A stretch of 64,000 nucleotides of DNA from Candidatus Portnoybacteria bacterium RBG_19FT_COMBO_36_7 (GCA_001819495.1 MHMW01000021.1:10706-74705); one strand, 5' to 3'; positions 9,196-55,684 are shown, counted from the first letter of the stretch. Program-made: numbers and translations. The notes: generated by a model not told the origin, from the sequence alone.

Positions 9196-9662
9196 ATAAT
9201 CTCTTTAAGCTGTCTCGGAGAGGGCTTTTTGGTTTACCTTTGTTAAATCCCGCAAAGCGGGAGCTGCAAAGCAGCTATTTAACAGGGTGACTACTCTCGT
9301 CAACCGACATTTTAGGTCTTGCCTGACCCACTCCGACCCAAGGTCGGAGCAATCGACACTACTTCCTCTTATATTAAAAAATATAAGAAAGGAGGTGATC
9401 CATCCACAGCTTCCGCTACGGATGCCTTGTTACGACTTCGTCCCTGTCACCGAGCCTACCTTGAAACCAATAAATTGGCGCTTCCGGTATTCCCGGCTTC
9501 CTTGACGTGACGGGCGGTGAGTACAAGACTTGAGAACGTATTCACCGCGCCATGGCTGATGCGCGATTACTAGCGATTCCGGCTTCATGAGGTCGGGTTG
9601 CAGACCTCAATCCGAACTGGGACCGGCTTTGATGGGATTAGCTCCATGTTACCATTTCGCTT

Positions 9663-9693
<31 letters not shown>

Positions 9694-10332
9694 AGCCCAG
9701 GTCATCAAAGGATCACGCTGATTTGACGTCATCCCCGCCTTCCTCCCCATTGTCTGAGGCAGTCTGCTGCGACACTTGTAACGCAGCATAAGGGTTGCGC
9801 TCGTTTCCTCACTTAAGAGAACAGCTCACGCCACGAGCTGACGACAACCGTGCAATACCTGACCCATCTGTCCTTGTGAGACATCGGCTGTTTCCAGCAG
9901 ACTTCAGATGGATGTCTAGACCTGGTAAGGTTCCTCGCTTGTCGTCGAATTGAACCACATGCTCCACCGCTTGTGCAAGTCCCCGTCTATTTCTTTGAGT
10001 TTTAGCCTTGCGGCCGTACTTCCCAGGCGGCAAACTTAACGCGTTAGCTTCGCCACCTGAAGGGTCGATACTTCAAATGGCTAGTTTGCATAGTTTAGGG
10101 CGTGGACTACAAGGGTATCTAATCCTTTTTGCTCCCCACGCTTTCGTCTCTCAGGGTCAGAGTAGCGCTAGCTGAATGCCTTCGCTTTTGGTGTTCCCTA
10201 CGATATCAACGGATTTCACCCCTACACCGTAGGTTCCATCAGCCTCTCGCACTCTCTAGTTTTGACGTTTCTTGCGCGGCGTTGGAGTTGAGCCCCAACA
10301 TTTAACACAAGACTATCAAAACCCCCTACAGA

Positions 10333-10363
<31 letters not shown>

Positions 10364-10454
10364 TGGGGTACTCGTCTTACCGCTCCTGCTGGCACGAGTT
10401 TAGGAACCCCTTATTCTTAGGGTACGCTCATTACGCTCCTCGCTTTCGCTCGTC

Positions 10455-10600
10455 GCTCAAATTAAAATTTTAAAGTTAAAAGTGTGAAATCATTGTATCG
10501 CTACGCAATGATTTATATATAATCATCCCGCGAAGCGGGGCACCTTAATTTTTAACTTTTCATTTTCCATTTTTAACTTAGCTCCGAACGTAAGTGAGGA
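10455..10600 (-). repeat. Insertion (~150 nt) in the V3 hairpin of 16S, built from the genome-wide AT-rich repeat family (aaagttaaaa / aatttttaac arms) around a GC palindrome
   Basis: Flanking 16S sequence aligns to E. coli ~430-500. The inserted segment is caaattaaaattttaaagttaaaagtgtgaaatc - core with cccgcgaagcgggg - ccttaatttttaacttttcattttccatttttaactt. The arms are inverted repeats. Confidence 0.5.
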
Positions 10601-10989
10601 GCGCATTGCTCCCCTATAAAAGAGTTTTACACCCCGAAGGGCTTCTTCACTCACGCGGCGTCGCTCGATCACGCTTTCGCGCATTGTCGAAGATTCTCGA
10701 CTGCAGCCTCCCGTAGGAGTCCGGACAGTTTCTCAGTTCCGATGTTGGGGGCCGACCTCTCAGTCCCCCTACCCGTCATCGCCTTGGTGGGCCGTTACCT
10801 CACCAACTAGCTGATAGGACGCAGGCCTCTCCTGAAGCAACCCTTGCGGGTCTTTAAATGAGAATGACATAAGTCCCCTCATTACTATCTTGTATTAGTC
10901 CCGATTTCTCGGGATTATTCAAAACTTCAGGGTAAGTTACCTACGCGTTACTAACCCGTTTGCCACTACCGCTCGTGCTTCGCTATCGC

Positions 10990-11045
10990 TCATCACTCGC
11001 TCAAATTAAAAGTTTAAATTTTCATTTTTAATTTTTAACTTAAGT
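10990..11045 (-). repeat. Insertion (~55 nt) in the V1 hairpin of 16S from the same AT-rich repeat family
   Basis: caaattaaaagtttaaattttcatttttaatttttaactt lies between CAAGTCGAACG...GCACAAAC and the GAGCGGTAGTGGCAAACGGGT region. Confidence 0.4.
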
Positions 11046-11726
11046 TTGTGCTGAACATAGTGAAGCACAAACGATCGTTCGACTTGCATGCCCGTATCCA
11101 CGCCGCCAGCGTTCATCCTGAGCTAGAATCAAACTCTCATTGTAAATGTTAGAACTAAAATTGCTGAATCGATCTTCGACCGTCCCACAAAATGCGGGGC
11201 AGTAAAGCGACTCAACACCTCTAGAATCCAACAAGTTTTTTCGAGACAACTTAAAAAGATTATCTCATCTCGCCGAAGCTCCGAATGGAGCATAGGCGGA
11301 TTAGCTCAAAAAAAATCTGGTTTATCCCGTTACATCCGCCAAAAAGACGGAAGTATTTATTACATCCCTTATAGTAGGATGCAATGGGATTTATTTAACC
11401 TTACTTTTTGTCTGTATTTTGTTGTTAAAGTTCAATCAAGTTTATCCATTTATACCCTCTTTCGCCCTGCAGGCTACGGACGGGTTATTCTCTTACGAGA
11501 ATAAAAAATACAACTAGTCAGACCTCTTAACTAATATTTAATTAAGAACCCCTCAAGTTGTATTTTCTAACTAACAAACTGATAACTGACAAACTGATTT
11601 TTTTTAATGGGTTCTTCTACATAGGCGTATTTTTCCTTTCCGCCCCGCAACTGCAGGGCTCTATGCAATGTCTATTTTACTCCTCTCAGTTAGCTTGTCA
11701 AGTGCTTAAATTTTACTTATCAAAAA

Positions 11727-18259: not shown

Positions 18260-19034
18260 ATAAGGAATCTAAACTATTTTTTGTGTACTTATACAGATTC
18301 GTGATGTTCTCTTCGTTTAAAATCTGAATGGCATAATTCCAATGAAACGAAATCCAATCCCCCACTTCAACATTTGGCAACATTGTTTTATCCCAATTAA
18401 TTTCTTTTTCTTTCATGCTTCCAAACTTTATTTTCTTTCTCCCGATTAATGGGTTATATTCAACAATAATTTTTAACTTTTCATTTTTAAATTTTAACTT
18501 TTTAACCCTCCCCCAGCCAACCCGGCAGATATCTTTTAGATCCGTCCTGCCTGCAAAATCAATGCTGCCGGTTACCGCCCCCAGAACCAGAACATGAAAA
18601 CTGTGGTGCGGTTTGGAAGAAACTGGAATTGCATCAGATTTTTCTTTCGCGGCTTTTCTTGATAATAAACCGGGGCCAGAAAATCTTTTAACAATCAATT
18701 CGCGCAAATCATTAAAAGTTACCTTTTCCAATAACTCATTGCCGAGCCAATAAGCTTCAATTACTTTTTTGTTCAAAGACCCTGTTTTAATTCTGTTTTT
18801 CTTGGCAATCAATTCGTAATAAGGATAGGCTGCCTGAAATCTTTTTAGGGCCGGGATTATATCGGGTATGCCCAATTTCCCCCTGATAAATTCTCTTAAG
18901 TTTTTCTGGTCTTCCGACAGCCCGCAAAGACCCATCTCATTTGGAATCAAGCCATATAGCGCCGCGATTTTAGGCCCTGACATTGATTTTTTCTCCCAGC
19001 AGTTTAATTTTTTCCAATATAAAACGGTACCCAA
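18252..19034 (-). CDS. Hypothetical protein with a C-terminal HypC/HupF-like domain. The alternative start MSGPKIAALYG at 18983 gives a shorter overlap with the upstream gene
   Basis: C-terminal DICRVGWGRV...VGDWISFHWNYAIQIL resembles HypC MC(L/I)(A/G)(I/V)PG...VGDWVLVHVGFAI. The N-terminal ~185 aa have no recognisable family. An in-frame AT-rich repeat insertion (KKLKFKNEKLK) is at 18440-18500. Confidence 0.4.
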   Translation of the reverse strand: MGTVLYWKKLNCWEKKSMSGPKIAALYGLIPNEMGLCGLSEDQKNLREFIRGKLGIPDIIPALKRFQAAYPYYELIAKKNRIKTGSLNKKVIEAYWLGNELLEKVTFNDLRELIVKRFSGPGLLSRKAAKEKSDAIPVSSKPHHSFHVLVLGAVTGSIDFAGRTDLKDICRVGWGRVKKLKFKNEKLKIIVEYNPLIGRKKIKFGSMKEKEINWDKTMLPNVEVGDWISFHWNYAIQILNEENITNLYKYTKNSLDSLYV

Positions 19035-19881
19035 GAATCATTATCAGACCTCCGGTTATCAGGCCGCTTGAAACAATCTCGCCAAAATTTATTTTTCCCG
19101 TTGAAGCGAATGCCAGCAAAGTGGTAATGGGAGATCCTAAAAGCAGAATTGCGGCTGCTGTAGAAACAGGAATATGCCTCAAACCGCTGTACCATGTTAT
19201 GACATAACCGAACAAGATAAAAGAAGCAATCTGGATCCAGAAAACCTGTTCAAAGTTAAGCTGGCTGATTATCGTCAATTGTCCGCTACCGGCCAGAAAA
19301 ATCAAAATCAGAATGGCGCCAAAAAACATTCTGCCCCAGGCAACGATCTTGGGTGACAGGCCTGCCAGCGCGTATTTTGATATAACGCTTTCAACCGCCC
19401 AAAGCAATGTGGCCAAAAATACATAAAAATCGCCGCGGTTAAAAGACAAATGAAGCGCTTTTAGGGCAATCAGATTTCCTGCCAATATCATCAGAGCTCC
19501 AATCAGCATTTCTTTTCTTATTTTTTCGCGCAAAAATATCGAGGCCAAAATCATAGTGTATATAAACATCGTTTTGTGGATAAAAGAACCTTGAGCGGCT
19601 GAGGTAATGGATAAACCTTTGAAAAATAACAAGAATGCGGCGCCGCCGCCCACAAATCCGATTACCAAAAGCATCAGCCACTGCTTTTTTGTCAGCTTGG
19701 CCAGCTGGCGCCATTCTTTGGCCAGCAGCACAAATCCGCTAAAAGCCAAAGCGACCATCACATTTTTTAAAAAAGCAAATAAGTACGGATTGACTCCGCC
19801 AACACCGTATTTGTTGATAAAAATCGAAAATCCCGAAATAATGGCGGTGATAAAAACTAATAATAATCCTTTTTTATTCAT
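18970..19881 (-). CDS. EamA/DMT-family 10-TM transporter
   Basis: Two duplicated 5-TM EamA-like halves. Confidence 0.7.
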   Translation of the reverse strand: MNKKGLLLVFITAIISGFSIFINKYGVGGVNPYLFAFLKNVMVALAFSGFVLLAKEWRQLAKLTKKQWLMLLVIGFVGGGAAFLLFFKGLSITSAAQGSFIHKTMFIYTMILASIFLREKIRKEMLIGALMILAGNLIALKALHLSFNRGDFYVFLATLLWAVESVISKYALAGLSPKIVAWGRMFFGAILILIFLAGSGQLTIISQLNFEQVFWIQIASFILFGYVITWYSGLRHIPVSTAAAILLLGSPITTLLAFASTGKINFGEIVSSGLITGGLIMILGYRFILEKIKLLGEKINVRA

Positions 19882-19990
19882 ACCAGGTAGTGAAAATTCG
19901 ACTTGTTATTGATAGATTATCAATAGCTTAGTCTTTTAATAAAATTACAGATGCCATATAGTAAAATCCGCATTATTTTTTATCCTGCTT
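19873..19990. repeat. Miniature inverted-repeat element, family B. The 21-bp terminal inverted repeats GCCAGGTAGTGAAAATTCGAC / GTCGAATTTCTACTACCTGGC enclose a core with the palindrome ttgatagattatcaa
   Basis: accaggtagtgaaaattcgac ... ggtcgaatttctactacctggc. Other copies are at 32903-32992, 47968-48045 and 48128-48192. Confidence 0.55.
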
Positions 19991-20231
19991 CGCGGGACGG
20001 TCGAATTTCTACTACCTGGCATGTTTTTTTCTTCGCACTTTTAAATAATTTATTAATTTCTTGCGCCTGTTTTTTGCTGATCTTCTGCACTATCACATTA
20101 TTTTGGGTCAGAACCCAGTCGCCTTTTTTGACAGAAATTATGGCGCCGACCTCCTGCGGCCCTTTTTGCGATTTCACCGTCGCAACGCCTTTTTTTAATC
20201 CGATAACTTGTTTTGGAATTGTCAGACACAT
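19980..20231 (-). CDS. hypC: Hydrogenase assembly chaperone HypC/HupF
   Basis: MCLTIPKQVIGL ... GDWVLTQNNVIVQKI; about 83 aa. Confidence 0.7.
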   Translation of the reverse strand: MCLTIPKQVIGLKKGVATVKSQKGPQEVGAIISVKKGDWVLTQNNVIVQKISKKQAQEINKLFKSAKKKTCQVVEIRPSREAG

Positions 20232-20249
20232 ATTCACTGTCGTTCAATT

Positions 20250-32902: not shown

Positions 32903-32992
32903 ACCTTGCCCGGTAGTGAAATTTCGGCATATTTTTTGAATTTAGCCCCGCCAGGCGGGGCCAGCCGAAATTCTACTACCGGGCTTGACATT
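32903..32992. repeat. Family-B inverted-repeat element, divergent copy (cccggtagtgaaatttcggc ... ccgaaattctactaccgggc), with core palindrome ccccgccaggcgggg
   Basis: See 19873-19990. Confidence 0.5.
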
Positions 32993-33015
32993 TCTTATAA
33001 ATCTGCTATAATATA
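32982..33015 (+). promoter_or_regulatory. Sigma-70-like promoter (TTGACA - 17 nt - TATAAT), followed by a ~240-nt structured leader
   Basis: cttgacatttcttataaatctgctataatatacc. Confidence 0.45.
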
Positions 33016-35110: not shown

Positions 35111-35443
35111 TTATGCCTGTAAGAAGCTTGCCACCAATTCCCAGATTCCAAAGGCCAATATCGCAACGCCAACACCCACCAAGCCGTAAATGAAAGCTCT
35201 TTTAGCTTTTCCGATTTTTTCCTCATCTCCCGCAGCAGTCATATAAAGAAATGCGGCATAAAGTATTACGAAAATACCTACTATAAAGATAATCGCAGCA
35301 AACCATGTTAAAATGGTATTTAACAAATCTAGAATTCCCCCTCTGGTCAAAGTAACACTCGGTAACGTGCCTGTCTGAGCCAAAGCAACTGCCGGCAGAA
35401 TTTGAGCTGCCAAAATCGCTCCCAGATATTTAATTTTTCTCAT
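35111..35443 (-). CDS. TrbC/VirB2-like pilin paralog 1 (signal peptide plus two TM helices)
   Basis: Signal peptide MRKIKYLGAILAAQILPAVALAQ; conserved LYAAFLYMTAAGDEEKIGKAKRAFIYGLVGVGVAI. Confidence 0.5.
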   Translation of the reverse strand: MRKIKYLGAILAAQILPAVALAQTGTLPSVTLTRGGILDLLNTILTWFAAIIFIVGIFVILYAAFLYMTAAGDEEKIGKAKRAFIYGLVGVGVAILAFGIWELVASFLQA

Positions 35444-35522
35444 TTTCTATCTCACCTCCTTTCAAATAAAAATTTTAATACTAATATTTATCAATTGGTA
35501 AAATTGCGATGTTTTTTTATCG

Positions 35523-35864
35523 TCAAGTCAGCAAGCTCTCAACCGCGTCCCAAATTCCATAAGCAAGCATGGCGACAATAATACCGACAATACCATAAAT
35601 AAAGGTTTTTTTAGCTTTCTCAATTCTGCTGTCGTCCCCTCCTGATGTCATGTATAAAAATGCGGCGTAAAGAATACAGGCAATACCTAGTATAAAAATA
35701 ATTTGGGCAAACCATGTTTTAATCTGATCAAATAACTCAACAAGTCTATCTGCCGTTAAATCAATCTGCGGCGGCTCATTGCCTTGGGCTGAAGCAATCA
35801 CGGGCAGCATTAGAATCGTTATGACAGAAATTATTAATAAATATCTTAAAATTTTTTTCTTCAT
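35523..35864 (-). CDS. TrbC/VirB2-like pilin paralog 2
   Basis: LYAAFLYMTSGGDDSRIEKAKKTFIYGIVGIIVAM. Confidence 0.5.
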   Translation of the reverse strand: MKKKILRYLLIISVITILMLPVIASAQGNEPPQIDLTADRLVELFDQIKTWFAQIIFILGIACILYAAFLYMTSGGDDSRIEKAKKTFIYGIVGIIVAMLAYGIWDAVESLLT

Positions 35865-35899
35865 ATGTTTATTGTTTCCTTCTTATTATTTATTATTTT

Positions 35900-36313
35900 T
35901 TAGTTTACCTCTAAAATACTTTTAATTAAAGTGATGAAACCGGCGCCAATCACAATTATCGCCACTCCGACAATCGTATAAGTGATGGCTTTTTTGGCTT
36001 TTTTAATCTTTTCTTCATCGCCGCCGGAAGTCAAAAAGAGAAATCCGGCGTATAAAACCATAATGGCTGCCAAAGGAACCATAATTTTATAAAACCATTC
36101 GGCTATCTTTTTGACTAAACCCTCAAAAGAATCAGTGTTTATGGGATTAGGAATTTCATATTTTCCCGTGCTACCTTGCTGCGCTAAAATAGGCTGCATA
36201 ATTAGTGCGCAGCCAAGTAGAGATAGAAATAATATTATAAAAATTTTTATCGATTTATTCAAATTCATAAAAATTAAATTTTTAATTTTTATCCGCTGCA
36301 TGTAAACTTCCAC
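35900..36313 (-). CDS. TrbC/VirB2-like pilin paralog 3
   Basis: LYAGFLFLTSGGDEEKIKKAKKAITYTIVGVAIIV. Confidence 0.5.
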   Translation of the reverse strand: MEVYMQRIKIKNLIFMNLNKSIKIFIILFLSLLGCALIMQPILAQQGSTGKYEIPNPINTDSFEGLVKKIAEWFYKIMVPLAAIMVLYAGFLFLTSGGDEEKIKKAKKAITYTIVGVAIIVIGAGFITLIKSILEVN

Positions 36314-36768
36314 CAGCTCTGGGGATTAAAGTCCCCGACGCTTTTGCCGATAACCTGAATGATGCTGTTGACAATCAGCCATGAAGCAAAAACAAAAATC
36401 AAGCCGATTACAACATTAATAAATATCTTTTTTGCCTGGGTAACCCTTTCCTCGGATCCGCCCGAAGTAAGAAAAATTGCTCCGGCAAAAACAATCAGAA
36501 GCCCGGCCACCGGCGGCGCCAGTCTGAAGGCAATAAAAGCGAAAATGTTTACGACAAGCGAGAAAAAAGCGCAAAGGTCGCATCCCTTATCGCCACATAC
36601 CGGCACAATCCGACAATTGGTGGTTAATTTAGTCATTACATCTTTGCATTCCGGCGTCTGGGCGTTTGCTAAAGAAGGATATAAAAATAATGAAAATCCG
36701 ATGATCAATAACAATGGCAATATTATAATAATTTTTTTCTTCATTAAGGTCTGCCTCATGAATTTCAA
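36289..36768 (-). CDS. TrbC/VirB2-like pilin paralog 4 with an extra Cys-rich insertion (7 Cys). The probable start is MKKKIIIIL at 36744
   Basis: VFAGAIFLTSGGSEERVTQAKKIFINVVIGLIFV plus TPECKDVMTKLTTNCRIVPVCGDKGCDLCAF. Confidence 0.45.
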   Translation of the reverse strand: MKFMRQTLMKKKIIIILPLLLIIGFSLFLYPSLANAQTPECKDVMTKLTTNCRIVPVCGDKGCDLCAFFSLVVNIFAFIAFRLAPPVAGLLIVFAGAIFLTSGGSEERVTQAKKIFINVVIGLIFVFASWLIVNSIIQVIGKSVGDFNPQSWWKFTCSG

Positions 36769-41924: not shown

Positions 41925-42599
41925 CTATATTTTCATCACCACTACATCAGGCCCTTCTTCCGGCAGATCTTTTTTCTTAATAGTCAATCTTTCAACTGCC
42001 TCTTTTTTGCTTACACCCATTTCCTCTAAAAAATCTTCCAACCCTTCAAGCTTGATGGCCAGGCCAGGAATTTTGTAATGCATGGGGATAACAATCTTAG
42101 GTTCGATCTGATTAATGATATCAGCCGCCTCTTCTCCGTTAACAGTATAAATGCCGCCTACCGGAATCATCAAAATATCAATACCGTCAATGATTTCTAT
42201 CTGAGTGTTATCCAGCTTAACTTGTCCGATGTCTCCTAAATGACATATTTTTATGCCTTCCATTTCAATCACATAAGAAGTGCTTTTACCTCGTTCTTTT
42301 CCTTCTTTTTGATCATGAAAAGTTTCAAGACCAATGATATTAACGCCTTTTACTTCATACTCTCCTGGTCCCTCAATAACAAGAGGATTTGAGGCGGCCA
42401 GCGCTTCCATATTATTATGGTCGTAATGCTGATGGGAAATAGTAACGATATTTGCCTGGCCGCGAGGCGGAGTAAGGCCAATCCCTTTATCAAAAGGGTC
42501 GGTCACCAAAACCGTTTCTCCGCTCTGTATTTTGAAACAAGATTGTCCGTACCAAGTAATGACCATAGAAAACCAAAATATCAATTGCCCAATGGACAA
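41925..42599 (-). CDS. MBL-fold metallo-hydrolase
   Basis: TISHQHYDHN (HxHxDH motif). Confidence 0.75.
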   Translation of the reverse strand: MSIGQLIFWFSMVITWYGQSCFKIQSGETVLVTDPFDKGIGLTPPRGQANIVTISHQHYDHNNMEALAASNPLVIEGPGEYEVKGVNIIGLETFHDQKEGKERGKSTSYVIEMEGIKICHLGDIGQVKLDNTQIEIIDGIDILMIPVGGIYTVNGEEAADIINQIEPKIVIPMHYKIPGLAIKLEGLEDFLEEMGVSKKEAVERLTIKKKDLPEEGPDVVVMKI

Positions 42600-46279: not shown

Positions 46280-47068
46280 ATGAAGTCAAAAAAATCGGCC
46301 ATTTTTATTTTATTGCTTTTTACCGCCCTCGTTTTGGCGGGTGTTTTTTATTGGTCCTTCATAAAGACTCAGGACAAGCTAAATAATCTGCCGAATGAAT
46401 CAGCCCAAAATTATTCCAATCTGCCAAATACAGAGAAAGAGATTTCAACCTCCACTCCCCCGTTTGTAATCAAAGACGAAATTTCGCGCGGCAATCCCGC
46501 TAAAAAACAGATTATTTTTACTTTTGACGCCGGCGCCGGATCAAATTCTTTGCAAAAAATTCTTGAAGTGACCAAAGCACATAATTTAAAATTAACTTTT
46601 TTTAGTACCGGGAAATTTGCCCAGAAGTATCCAGATTTAATAAAACAAATTGCCGCGGAAGATCACGAAATTTTCAATCACACGTATTCTCATCCGCATT
46701 TGACCCAAATAACGGACGAACAAATAAAAGAAGAACTTGATAAAACGGAACAAATTATCATCGGCCTGACCGGCCAAACCACCAAACCATATTTCCGTCC
46801 TCCATATGGCGACCGCAATTCTTATGTGCTTGAATTAGCCAAAGAGGAAGGCTACCAATCTGTCTATTGGACCATCGATGCATGGGATTGGATGACCGAT
46901 AAAACCGAAGAACAAGTCAAAAACAGAATTTACTCAAATTTAAAAAATGGCTCAATAATCCTGATGCATATTGGTGATAATATCACGGGGAATATCCTAG
47001 AAGAAGTTTTTACAAAAATAAAAAATGACGGATACAAAATAGTCAGCTTAACCGAAGGATTAAAATGA
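46280..47068 (+). CDS. Polysaccharide deacetylase (NodB-homology, CE4) family protein, secreted
   Basis: FTFDAG, HTYSHPHL, RPPYGDRN motifs; N-terminal signal/anchor. Confidence 0.8.
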   Translation: MKSKKSAIFILLLFTALVLAGVFYWSFIKTQDKLNNLPNESAQNYSNLPNTEKEISTSTPPFVIKDEISRGNPAKKQIIFTFDAGAGSNSLQKILEVTKAHNLKLTFFSTGKFAQKYPDLIKQIAAEDHEIFNHTYSHPHLTQITDEQIKEELDKTEQIIIGLTGQTTKPYFRPPYGDRNSYVLELAKEEGYQSVYWTIDAWDWMTDKTEEQVKNRIYSNLKNGSIILMHIGDNITGNILEEVFTKIKNDGYKIVSLTEGLK

Positions 47069-47976
47069 AATTCATAGCCAAAAAAGAAAACGTTGGCCGG
47101 CGGCTCGATAAACTTATTGCCGGGTATTGGCCGCAATATTCGCGCGCCTATATTCAAAAACAGGTCAAAGGCGGCGCGGTTCTGGTCAACGGCCAGATAA
47201 AAAAATCTAGTTATTTATTGAAAGAAAACGACGAAATTGAGGCAAATATTTTACCACTTCCTGAAATTTCTCTTGAGCCTGACCAAACAATTGAACTAAA
47301 AATTATTTATGAGGACGATGACGTGATAGTGATTGATAAGCCTGCCGGTTTAATTGTTCATCCAAGCGCCACCCAGAAAAGCGGCACGCTTGTGAACGGC
47401 TTGCTCGCCCACTATCCCCTGCTCAAAGGCGTCGGAGAGGACCCAGTCAGACCAGGCATTGTCCATCGCCTTGATAAAGACACTTCTGGCCTGATGATTG
47501 TCTCTAAAAACAACGAATCGTTTGGATTCTTAAAAGACCAGTTCAAGAACAAAAAGGTTGAAAAAAAATATCTGGTTTTGGTGGCTGGCCGGCCGAAAGA
47601 ATCATCCGGCAAAATTAAAACTTTCATCAGCCGCAGCAAATCAGATCCGACCAGACAAAAAATTTCACAGCACGGAGCAAAAGAAGCAATCACTTTTTAC
47701 AAAACCATACGCGAATTTCGTAATTTTACTTTAATTGAGGCCGTTCCAAAAACCGGGCGCATGCATCAGATAAGAGTGCAGCTAGCTTGGCTGGGCAATC
47801 CAGTGACCTGCGACAATAAATACGGGCTAAAAAAGCGCGCCTGCCCCGAAGGCCTGACCAGGCAATTTCTGCACGCGGCAAAGCTGACAGTAGTCTTGCC
47901 CGACGGTCAAAAGAAATCTTTCATCAGCCATCTGCCGCCTGATCTCGATATAATATTAGCTAGCCTTGCCAGGTAG
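47065..47976 (+). CDS. RluA-family 23S rRNA pseudouridine synthase (RluD/RluC-like) with an S4 domain
   Basis: RLDKLIAG (S4), VIVIDKPAGLIVHP, HRLDKDTSGLMIV (catalytic Asp). Confidence 0.85.
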   Translation: MKFIAKKENVGRRLDKLIAGYWPQYSRAYIQKQVKGGAVLVNGQIKKSSYLLKENDEIEANILPLPEISLEPDQTIELKIIYEDDDVIVIDKPAGLIVHPSATQKSGTLVNGLLAHYPLLKGVGEDPVRPGIVHRLDKDTSGLMIVSKNNESFGFLKDQFKNKKVEKKYLVLVAGRPKESSGKIKTFISRSKSDPTRQKISQHGAKEAITFYKTIREFRNFTLIEAVPKTGRMHQIRVQLAWLGNPVTCDNKYGLKKRACPEGLTRQFLHAAKLTVVLPDGQKKSFISHLPPDLDIILASLAR

Positions 47977-48045
47977 TGAAAATTCGACATTTTTTTTGAT
48001 TTTTGATCGCCTTCGGCGATCAGTCGAATTTCTACTACCTGGCTT
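47968..48045. repeat. Family-B inverted-repeat element, copy 3 (core palindrome gatcgccttcggcgatc)
   Basis: gccaggtagtgaaaattcgac ... gtcgaatttctactacctggc. Confidence 0.55.
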
Positions 48046-48127
48046 GAAATAAAATGATATTTGTGCTAAAATTTCAAAGTTAATATAATTAAGACAGTAT
48101 TTCACCGAAAGACTGTTTTTATATACT

Positions 48128-48192
48128 TTGCCAGGTAGTGAAATTCGACTGCTGCCTGGCAACCATTTAATTTTAAATTGTCGAATTTCTAT
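48128..48192. repeat. Family-B inverted-repeat element, copy 4 (short core)
   Basis: gccaggtagtgaaattcgac tgctgcctggcaaccatttaattttaaattg tcgaatttctattacctagc. Confidence 0.5.
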
Positions 48193-48200
48193 TACCTAGC

Positions 48201-48587
48201 ATGAAAATGACAGAAGAACAACTGAAAAAAGATCTGCCGGAAATTAAGCCCGGCTATACCGTTATTGTCCACCAAAAAATTAAGGAAGGCGACAAAGAAA
48301 GAATCCAGCATTTTCAGGGACTGGTTATTGCTCAAAAACATGGCTCTGGAATAAACGCTACTTTTACCGTGCGCAAAATTTCCGCCGGCGTGGCGGTTGA
48401 ACGAATTTTCCCGCTTCATTCTCCAAACATCCAAAAAATTGAAGTAGTCAAAAAATCAAAAGTGCGGCGGGCCAAACTCTATTATCTTCGCGGCCGTTTT
48501 GGCAAACAGGCAAAGATGAAAAAGACAGAGGCGGTGGTGCCCGAAACCGTTTTGCCGGAGCAAACGCCTGACCAAACTGCTGAATAA
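48201..48587 (+). CDS. rplS: 50S ribosomal protein L19
   Basis: [34 protein letters not shown]...[21 protein letters not shown]. Confidence 0.9.
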
Positions 48588-49159: not shown

Positions 49160-49231
<72 letters not shown>

Positions 49232-49574
49232 CCCATCCTCCGCCGAGGCTACGGAATGGTACGCTTTGACGGAAAACAATAAATGCGGATGTATGGTATT
49301 CCGTATCCGTCAGCCGACGGAGAAGGATACCATCGCCCGCTCTTTATTTTATTTTTTATGTTTTACATTTATGTTTTAAAAGGTCTCAAAGATAAACGGA
49401 CATATTTAATAGCAAACTGAAAAAACATTGTATTGGACAGGTTAAATCAACAAAACATAGACTTCCTGTTCAATTATTATTTACTGAAATGTATTTAACA
49501 TCAAAAGAAGCAAAAAGACACGGATTGTGGTGGAAAAGTGGAGCGGGCAGAAGGAAATTAAAAGAAATATACAG

Positions 49575-49608
49575 ATAAAACAAAAAACCCTTCCAAAATC
49601 GGGGGTTT
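49575..49608. terminator. Bidirectional rho-independent terminator (serves the hup gene on the minus strand)
   Basis: caaaaaacccttccaaaatcgggggttttttgtttt. Confidence 0.6.
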
Positions 49609-55135: not shown

Positions 55136-55162
55136 CTTGAATTTTCCTCCCCTCCTCAGATG

Positions 55163-55628
55163 AGGAGGGGCTGGGGGTGGTGTTGATTTTTTAACTTCAA
55201 CACCTCACCTCTATCTCCTATCCTCAACTGAGGAGAGGAGAATAATTTGAAATTATTTTAAATTTTCAAAGATTTTTAACAAAACTCCGTCTAAATTATT
55301 ATTCACATCATTATCCCAAAATCTTAAAACTTTGAAGTCTAAGTTTTCTAAATACCCATCGCGTTTCTTGTCGTATTCTGAATCTATGTGCTGGCTACCG
55401 TCTATTTCAATAATTAGACGCTTCTTCGGACAGTAAAAATCTACAATATATTTACCAATGGAATGTTGCCTTCTAAATTTATAACCCAATCGGCTACTTC
55501 TTAAGCGCAACCAGAGAATAATTTCTTGAGGGGTTGATGATTTTCGCAACTTTTTACGAAACTCTTTTTTATTTTTTAAATTATGGACAGTGCGCATTAA
55601 ATCAACACCCCACCCTACCCCTCCCCTC
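55163..55628. mobile_element. About 466-bp mini-element: a DUF559 endonuclease gene bounded by ~26-bp G/C-rich imperfect terminal inverted repeats, each embedded in a hairpin
   Basis: Left gaggaggggctgggggtggtgttgat (55163-55188). Right atcaacaccccaccctacccctcccctc (55601-55628), reverse complement gaggggaggggtagggtggggtgttgat. Confidence 0.45.
55253..55597 (-). CDS. DUF559 / Vsr-like (PD-(D/E)xK) endonuclease-domain protein
   Basis: STPQEIILWLRLRSSRLGYKFRRQHSIGKYIVDFYCPKKRLIIEIDGSQH...KRDGYLENLDFKVLRFW; start taken at MRTVHNL. Confidence 0.6.
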   Translation of the reverse strand: MRTVHNLKNKKEFRKKLRKSSTPQEIILWLRLRSSRLGYKFRRQHSIGKYIVDFYCPKKRLIIEIDGSQHIDSEYDKKRDGYLENLDFKVLRFWDNDVNNNLDGVLLKIFENLK

Positions 55629-55684
55629 AACCGAAGGGAGGGAAAAAAAGTAAATTCTCAATCGAGTAAAGGGAATAAAAAAAT

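Follow-up and report, generated by a model that had tools for sequence, protein, structure and literature searches.

Miniature mobile elements widespread in Patescibacteria: an apparently undescribed family with a parent form that encodes only a small GIY-YIG nuclease

Four inverted-repeat units in a 64,000-nucleotide stretch of DNA from Candidatus Portnoybacteria bacterium RBG_19FT_COMBO_36_7 (MHMW01000021.1:10706-74705; hereafter the window) belong to a real, widespread and apparently undescribed family of miniature mobile elements, whose parent encodes only a small GIY-YIG nuclease. We hold with good confidence that the window repeats are gene-less, MITE-like copies of a tiny element of CPR bacteria (Patescibacteria), which we infer to be mobilised by that nuclease. 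At the level of sequence, the family is of mobile origin and bordered by direct repeats, its arms are linked to a nuclease gene that captures the ATG of the flank, and it keeps a conserved, mismatched hairpin. Literature searches of incomplete coverage, with the arm sequences and the peptide MPGSENST among their queries, brought up no prior description of the family. The copies in the window and their flanks are as follows.

Copy 1: 19883..20019, minus strand, long form of 137 bp, oriented towards EamA, right arm at 20000-20019; flanks CATA 19879-19882 (EamA start codon within CATA) and CATG 20020-20023
Copy 2: 32909..32983, plus strand, short form of 75 bp, three compensated arm changes; flanks CTTG 32905-32908 and CTTG 32984-32987
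Copy 3: 47969..48042, plus strand, short form of 74 bp; flanks CTTG 47965-47968 and CTTG 48043-48046
Copy 4: 48131..48199, plus strand, short form of 69 bp, decayed, arms with one deletion and two substitutions; flanks TTTG 48127-48130 and CATG 48200-48203 (rplS start codon at 48201 within CATG)

The initial annotation had proposed a repeat family with conserved inverted termini, and the family is genuine: the 21-mer GCCAGGTAGTGAAAATTCGAC with up to 3 mismatches has 5 matches in the window versus 0 in 100 shuffles, and a degenerate arm pattern has 7 matches versus 0.12 expected. All four of the copies it had located exist, while its end for copy 1 at 19990 misses the right arm and the other ends had to be adjusted. 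The GTGA-type arm is the left-hand one on the plus strand in 4/4 window copies, which thus share one orientation. The cores had been said to differ completely, which does not hold, as copies 1-3 share a common layout (arm, T-run, 5-8 bp GC hairpin, arm) and each core type recurs in other genomes. The core of copy 4, TGCTGCCTGGCAAC plus an A/T-rich stretch, is that of a short subfamily seen in L037, L019, L107 and L051, and present in at least five other genomes. No complete, gene-bearing copy was found in the window, where the sole GIY-YIG gene (49358-49578) is frameshifted and of another subfamily.

Insertion has left its marks on the neighbouring genes. Copy 1 lies at the co-directional hypC-EamA junction and adds a 13-aa tail, CQVVEIRPSREAG, to hypC (19980..20237, minus strand). 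Copies 3 and 4 are positioned between the co-directional rluD-like and rplS genes, so that the earlier idea of a placement between convergent or divergent units fails for these three copies. The left arm of copy 3 supplies the TAG stop of the RluD-like ORF 47065..47976 and replaces the last residues of the protein; with the element removed in sequence, the ending ...ASLEIK-stop is restored. Copies 1 and 4 sit on the start codons of EamA and rplS, and the CTTG repeats of copies 2 and 3 overlap the -35 hexamers of strong promoter-like sites: the right CTTG of copy 2 overlaps the -35 box of a perfect TTGACA-16-TATAAT at 32985-33012, and that of copy 3 overlaps TTGAAA-17-TAAAAT at 48044-48072, a site that the initial annotation had already recognised.

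The arms pair into a stem that is conserved as a structure. The window elements fold into long hairpins (RNA MFE -26 to -49 kcal/mol, z -4.8 to -8.8), with the one wobble and one mismatch that had been predicted, and the termini of copy 2, rightly called divergent, carry three changes that are each compensated in the other arm. Across 77 distinct arm pairs, 92.8% of cells pair, and six stem positions show changes on both sides (at one of them, for example, A-U in 50, C-G in 11 and G-C in 9). These six compensated positions indicate that the hairpin is under selection. Columns 14/39 and 15/38 hold one G·U plus one A·C in 76/77 distinct arm pairs; this tandem G·T/A·C mismatch occupies adjacent positions and reads identically on either strand. 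A covarying stem with a fixed distortion suggests a folded single strand that is recognised by a protein. The polarity of the stem (which arm bears GA) was compared with local GC skew as an indicator of replication direction, as in single-strand transposition, and no association was detected (Fisher p 0.65) with the 8-kb skew, which is a weak proxy.

A scan of species-representative genomes placed the arms at at least 116 loci. Among the matches listed, the loci with two inverted arms lie almost all in Patescibacteria MAGs of many classes, including Parcubacteria, Portnoy-, Gottesman-, Yanofsky-, Nealson- and Moranbacteria besides automatically labelled MAGs. The initial annotation had conceded that it would be wrong if only its four copies existed and were parts of one duplicated segment; more than 100 further copies occur in about 1 Mb of CPR genomes. 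The single Parcubacteria MAG LBYG01 carries at least 14, compared with 4 in the 64-kb window. By a rough estimate, about 70 matches to the arm pattern are expected by chance in 596 Gb, and single-arm matches in Paracoccus, Massilia, Kosakonia and other genera were discounted since their number is close to that estimate. One single-arm match on a viral contig of 62% GC, lacking a partner arm, was likewise treated as chance and not as viral carriage.

Among the matches listed, 124 arm pairs were recovered, and their lengths are bimodal. Gene-less copies fall into classes of ~75 nt (about 70-83) and ~140 nt (about 130-150), with an overall range of 67-171 nt, and the ends read CCNGG...CCNGG. The cores form conserved subfamilies. 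An arrangement of arm, 5-8 bp GC hairpin and A-rich stretch is common to window copies 1-3 and many Parcubacteria-type copies, both short and long, and the long form of the Gottesmanbacteria type has a separate conserved core. In the ~75- and ~140-nt copies, the short GC hairpin and A-rich stretch take the place of the ORF. Most gene-less cores have no detectable similarity to the nuclease ORF, so that it is the arms, the repeats and a single intermediate that speak for their descent from the gene-bearing form. This intermediate, L012, is a 129-nt copy in which 14 nt from the start of the ORF and some 70 nt from its end are retained; it is a deletion intermediate of the nuclease gene.

The complete element measures about 315-330 bp and consists of 20-21 bp inverted arms, CCAGGTAGTGAAAATTCGAC ... 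GTCGAATTTCTACTACCTGG, around a single ORF. Two such elements of 320-327 bp were contained in the first locus set. Gene-bearing copies are rare: eight have the same arms and repeats (L094, L087, L033, L117, L209, L219, L220 and L221), those of L219 and L033 having diverged in their arms with compensated changes. With respect to the ORF, the arms are arranged as GA/AG in some copies and as AG/GA in others, and the two are never alike. The ORF encodes a single-domain GIY-YIG nuclease of ~100 aa (Pfam E 1e-15 to 2e-17), in which the PF01541 match covers residues 3-72 of 88-91 aa and no other domain is found. The GIY, YIG, R, EHN and RE motifs are intact in 25/25 homologues sampled, and a protein search returned at least 1289 homologous protein clusters.

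The arm and the gene are joined at the level of the protein. An arm-encoded M(P/S)GS(E/R)... peptide, mostly MPGSENST, is present in 24/25 sampled homologues and forms the annotated N-terminus in 23; MPGSENST corresponds to the ATG of the flank plus the left arm, translated in frame. Four sampled homologues contain no internal Met, and the flank ATG must therefore be their start. In the gene-bearing copies, the right-hand ATG serves as the start of the host gene downstream; it follows the stop of the nuclease ORF by about 21 nt in most copies and by 43 nt in L220.

Conservation ends four bases beyond CCNGG, where a target-site duplication, which the initial annotation had proposed to look for, is indeed observed. 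Among the matches listed, the 4-bp flanks are identical in 39/60 strictly matched arm pairs, distributed over these flank pairs:

TATG/TATG, 26 pairs
CATA/CATA, 7 pairs
TATA/TATA, 2 pairs
CTTG/CTTG, 2 pairs (window copies 2 and 3)
TTTG/TTTG, 1 pair
CGTA/CGTA, 1 pair

The gene-bearing copy L221 is flanked by AATG/AATG. Insertion is accompanied by a direct repeat of 3-4 bp with the consensus TATG and, more generally, Y-W-T-G. In eight copies, CATG stands upstream and TATG on the gene side, and the reverse arrangement was never seen; this asymmetry argues against a plain 4-bp duplication from a simple 4-bp staggered cut, and the T before the right-hand ATG may belong to the element.

Two orthologous presence/absence comparisons show the insertion directly. 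One lies in the window, compared with its best relative, the Candidatus Portnoybacteria contig L007, which has 75-81% nucleotide identity to it:

Empty target site: 42564..42567, minus strand, a single CATA (TATG on the minus strand) where the MBL-fold hydrolase gene 41925..42566 has its start codon

In the L007 ortholog of this hydrolase (82% aa identity), a 155-bp element stands between two CATA, exactly at the start codon. The other comparison concerns copy 1, of which the empty site had been reconstructed beforehand as ATGA, with the stop of hypC overlapping the start of EamA. The metagenome relatives L127, L148 and L128 (EamA 78-83% identity) read uninterrupted through ...AAGAAAAAAA(C/T)ATGAATAAAAAAGG, as reconstructed, with CATG in the closest of these empty counterparts of copy 1. 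A nucleotide search revealed no further empty sites among the fetched loci. Besides, L083 holds family copies at about 911-1127 that are nested or abutting, one having gone into or against another, which suggests repeated activity at one site. The initial annotation had judged the units less transposon-like; the 3-4 bp repeats, the empty sites, the gene-bearing copies and the L012 intermediate speak to the contrary.

When the elements were removed in silico, 57/109 of the reconstructed empty sites coincided with the first ATG in an ORF of 60 codons or more, compared with 10% of control YATG sites (p 3e-28). This enrichment could reflect targeting, or else selection against intragenic insertions and the survival of harmless ones. 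Insertion at (Y)ATG start codons and at the (C)TTG of -35 boxes accounts for the positions in the window, and the use as insulators that had been proposed finds no support. Translational coupling was considered as well and proved inconsistent: in gene-less copies, the distances from the stop of the short ORF opened by the upstream ATG to the host ATG range from -13 to +125 nt.

Are the repeats, then, primarily host RNA elements (RNase III sites, mRNA stabilisers, terminators or insulators) that are kept for regulation? The hairpins are very stable, their stem is maintained by compensatory changes, copies lie in transcribed operon junctions, and the orientation of the core is constant relative to the downstream gene, all of which would suit such a role. 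Against it, the scans found no hairpin-plus-U-tract and no terminator formed from the element stem, T-runs preceding rather than following the internal hairpins, so that the units do not answer to the definition of intrinsic terminators and the terminator use suggested earlier falls away. Moreover, orthologous genes work without the element, the sites differ between related genomes, and the mobile origin is evident from the direct repeats and the gene-bearing copies. Rfam has no family at the gathering threshold for these sequences, and relaxing E to 10 brought only snoRNA/miRNA noise far below the cut-offs. We therefore regard a primary host RNA function as very unlikely, and any RNA role of the element may be secondary.

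The same data bear on the enzyme that moves the element. 3-4 bp target duplications with terminal inverted repeats are the classic MITE signature, IS5-like DDE transposases make 4-bp duplications, and GIY-YIG nucleases are not known transposases, so the arms might be the termini of an ordinary transposon moved in trans by an unlinked DDE-type transposase, with the GIY-YIG gene as a passenger or secondary invader. We think this unlikely: the left arm encodes the nuclease N-terminus in 24/25 sampled homologues, which makes arm and gene one unit, and no transposase is found among the 40 window ORFs scanned. Nor does any arm pair in 1.24 Mb lie 0.4 kb or more apart, the largest enclosure being 327 bp, so that no larger transposase-bearing partner is seen there. 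That the repeats are attC-like recombination sites or REP/BIME units on which a tyrosine recombinase or RAYT acts is highly improbable in our judgement. Conserved ends with variable middles, a GTAG tetranucleotide within each arm, and a conserved stem mismatch that recalls attC and IS200/IS605 hairpins favour this reading, and the earlier comparison with REP-like hairpin repeats, which are associated with a nuclease, was apt in spirit. The attC features themselves are absent, however: there is no GTTRRRY core, the ends read CCNGG/TATG, and cassette arrays are lacking. The unit is a split hairpin of 70-330 bp with direct repeats and not a palindrome of 20-40 bp as in REP sequences, the gene that goes with it encodes a GIY-YIG nuclease, and the search for a tyrosine recombinase or RAYT that had been advised yielded no integrase and no Y1_Tnp match among the 40 window ORFs scanned. 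Gene-less MITE-like copies of a nuclease-encoding element remain our preferred reading. They show all the traits of MITEs, namely terminal inverted repeats, short duplications, small non-coding multicopy units, a coding partner and presence/absence variation, while the coding partner encodes a GIY-YIG nuclease and not a recognised transposase.

Several known systems resemble the CPR element in part. The Correia/NEMIS elements of Neisseria and the Rickettsia palindromic elements are short non-coding MITEs with terminal inverted repeats, short target duplications and long mRNA hairpins; they insert next to or into genes, are co-transcribed with them, and are regarded as derivatives of DDE insertion sequences or have no known parent. 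Compared with these families, the CPR parent encodes only a GIY-YIG nuclease, and the typical target is the start codon itself. Homing GIY-YIG genes, free-standing or borne by introns, such as I-TevI and Seg are, like the CPR element, selfish and small, lie between host genes and use host expression signals, whereas the homing enzymes possess additional DNA-binding domains, recognise long and unique targets, spread by recombinational repair, and have no inverted arms, short duplications or miniature derivatives. With IS200/IS605 and REP/RAYT, the element shares a hairpin-dependent look, a conserved stem imperfection, a tetranucleotide target and a very small size. It lacks, however, an HUH/Y1 transposase, its protein being GIY-YIG, and it has direct repeats, while IS200/IS605 elements make no target duplication and carry a separate subterminal hairpin at each end; the IS200/IS605 definition thus does not apply. 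The likeness to REP/RAYT extends to a nuclease gene flanked by its own repeats (GTAG-/CGTC-tagged REPs; Di Nocera et al. 2013, PMC3733652).

Among known systems, Ssn/NTS comes closest: its single-domain GIY-YIG ssDNA nucleases are associated with NTS/SRM hairpin repeats, which they bind when the DNA is single-stranded and next to which they cut (Chenal et al. 2025, PMC11893778). Ssn genes flanked by their own hairpin repeats were likened to insertion sequences in that paper, which gives no evidence of mobility and does not mention CPR bacteria (PMC11893778). The two systems share a GIY-YIG protein that has a single domain and measures about 95-100 aa (Ssn about 94 aa), an IS-like arrangement of a gene bracketed by inverted repeats, and repeats that are also scattered through the genome. 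The Ssn layout was confirmed on Rhizobium and Shinella plasmids, where the gene stands between two canonical SRM hairpins. The CPR nuclease is 40% identical to an SRM-flanked Rhizobium protein, and the UPF0213 structures 1zg2 and 1ywl show equally weak similarity. The repeats differ in kind: each SRM is a complete hairpin of 28-31 nt with a CGTC tag, while the CPR arm is half of a whole-element hairpin and not self-complementary. The SRM pattern (HGTCWY...) has 0 matches in the window and 4 in each of the positive controls L207 and L208. Direct repeats, empty sites, fusion to the start codon and miniature derivatives characterise the CPR element, and none of them is reported for Ssn (PMC11893778).

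By analogy with the binding and cutting of hairpin repeats by Ssn nucleases, we surmise that a nuclease expressed from a complete copy elsewhere in the genome would mobilise both the complete and the gene-less forms. It probably recognises the snap-back hairpin that both arms would form in single-stranded DNA. GIY-YIG enzymes hydrolyse DNA, and we know of none that catalyses strand transfer; the joining step would be left to host enzymes. In about half of the copies the direct repeat is the start codon of a host gene; the upstream ATG, together with the translation signals of the host, then opens the nuclease frame, and the downstream repeat copy leaves the host gene with an intact start. The mRNA hairpin of the element probably limits the damage to the downstream gene. 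Only tentatively do we propose that the family represents an undescribed class of autonomous bacterial mobile elements, with an Ssn-like GIY-YIG nuclease as the only enzyme, acting on a whole-element snap-back hairpin. If this class holds, the autonomous element of ~320 bp would, to the best of our knowledge, be the smallest known.

Other small elements and features came to light in the window and its relatives. A second unit of the type hairpin repeat, small nuclease, hairpin repeat occupies 55142-55646 and contains a DUF559/Vsr-like endonuclease ORF (55253..55597, minus strand, Pfam E 6e-36) bracketed by 48-nt inverted repeats of G/C-rich hairpins (CCTCCCCTCC...AGGAGGGG); similar GGAGGG/CCCTCC hairpins stand upstream of EamA in L130, L136 and L149. 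In the relatives L141 and L146, other small elements have settled at the EamA start codon, which forms a hotspot for them, with a 76-bp element in L141 (about 1410-1500, ends CCCGTTAGAAAC/GTTTCTAACGGG) where L142 is empty, and a CGTC-tagged hairpin pair in L146 (about 1330-1430) that resembles Ssn motifs and narrowly fails the SRM pattern (TGTCATTCCGTGCTTGACACGGAATCCAGG). The frameshifted GIY-YIG pseudogene at 49358-49578 directly follows a tRNA (49160-49231) and is preceded by a duplicated tRNA 3' end (ATCGCCCGCTC twice). Duplicated tRNA segments enclose its intact relatives in L096, L028 and L008, the insertion point in L096 being the CATA of the tRNA-Met anticodon loop. A third kind of small GIY-YIG gene, at 7295-7564 in L219, has its own inverted ends, CCCGCCCAAATTTTTT...AAAAATTTAGGCGGG, and an ORF that opens at the flank ATG (MPAQIFYYVYILR), and the arm-plus-nuclease design may represent a wider superfamily. 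The 16S rRNA gene of the window (9388-11144, minus strand) spans 1757 nt versus a 1533-nt model and thus contains an insertion of about 220 nt; such insertions are common in CPR bacteria. An AT-rich repeat, TTTAACTTTTCATTTTTAATTTTTAACT, is present in two copies within the 16S span and in others at 18463, 20817 and 49117, and is probably what the initial annotation listed as its first repeat family. Of four tandem small genes at 35111-36759 (minus strand), each matches PF18895, the pilin family of type IV secretion (E 1e-10 to 2e-13).

With its duplications and empty sites, its miniature derivatives and over 1000 variants of the gene, the CPR family offers in silico evidence of mobility, and a protein of ~100 aa together with a 20-bp stem with a fixed mismatch makes the model testable in vitro. 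If the model is true, GIY-YIG nucleases would be a further kind of enzyme that drives DNA transposition, besides the DDE, HUH, serine, tyrosine and Cas1 enzymes, and the element would follow a parasitic strategy in which it inserts right after a start codon, borrows the RBS and ATG of the host for a gene without a start codon of its own and returns a fresh ATG to the host gene. For the annotation of CPR genomes, many GIY-YIG 'putative endonuclease' genes and artefactual extensions, such as the hypC tail and the RluD end, can be corrected by means of the element. Its position on start codons also bears on translation start and coupling in the reduced genomes of CPR bacteria.
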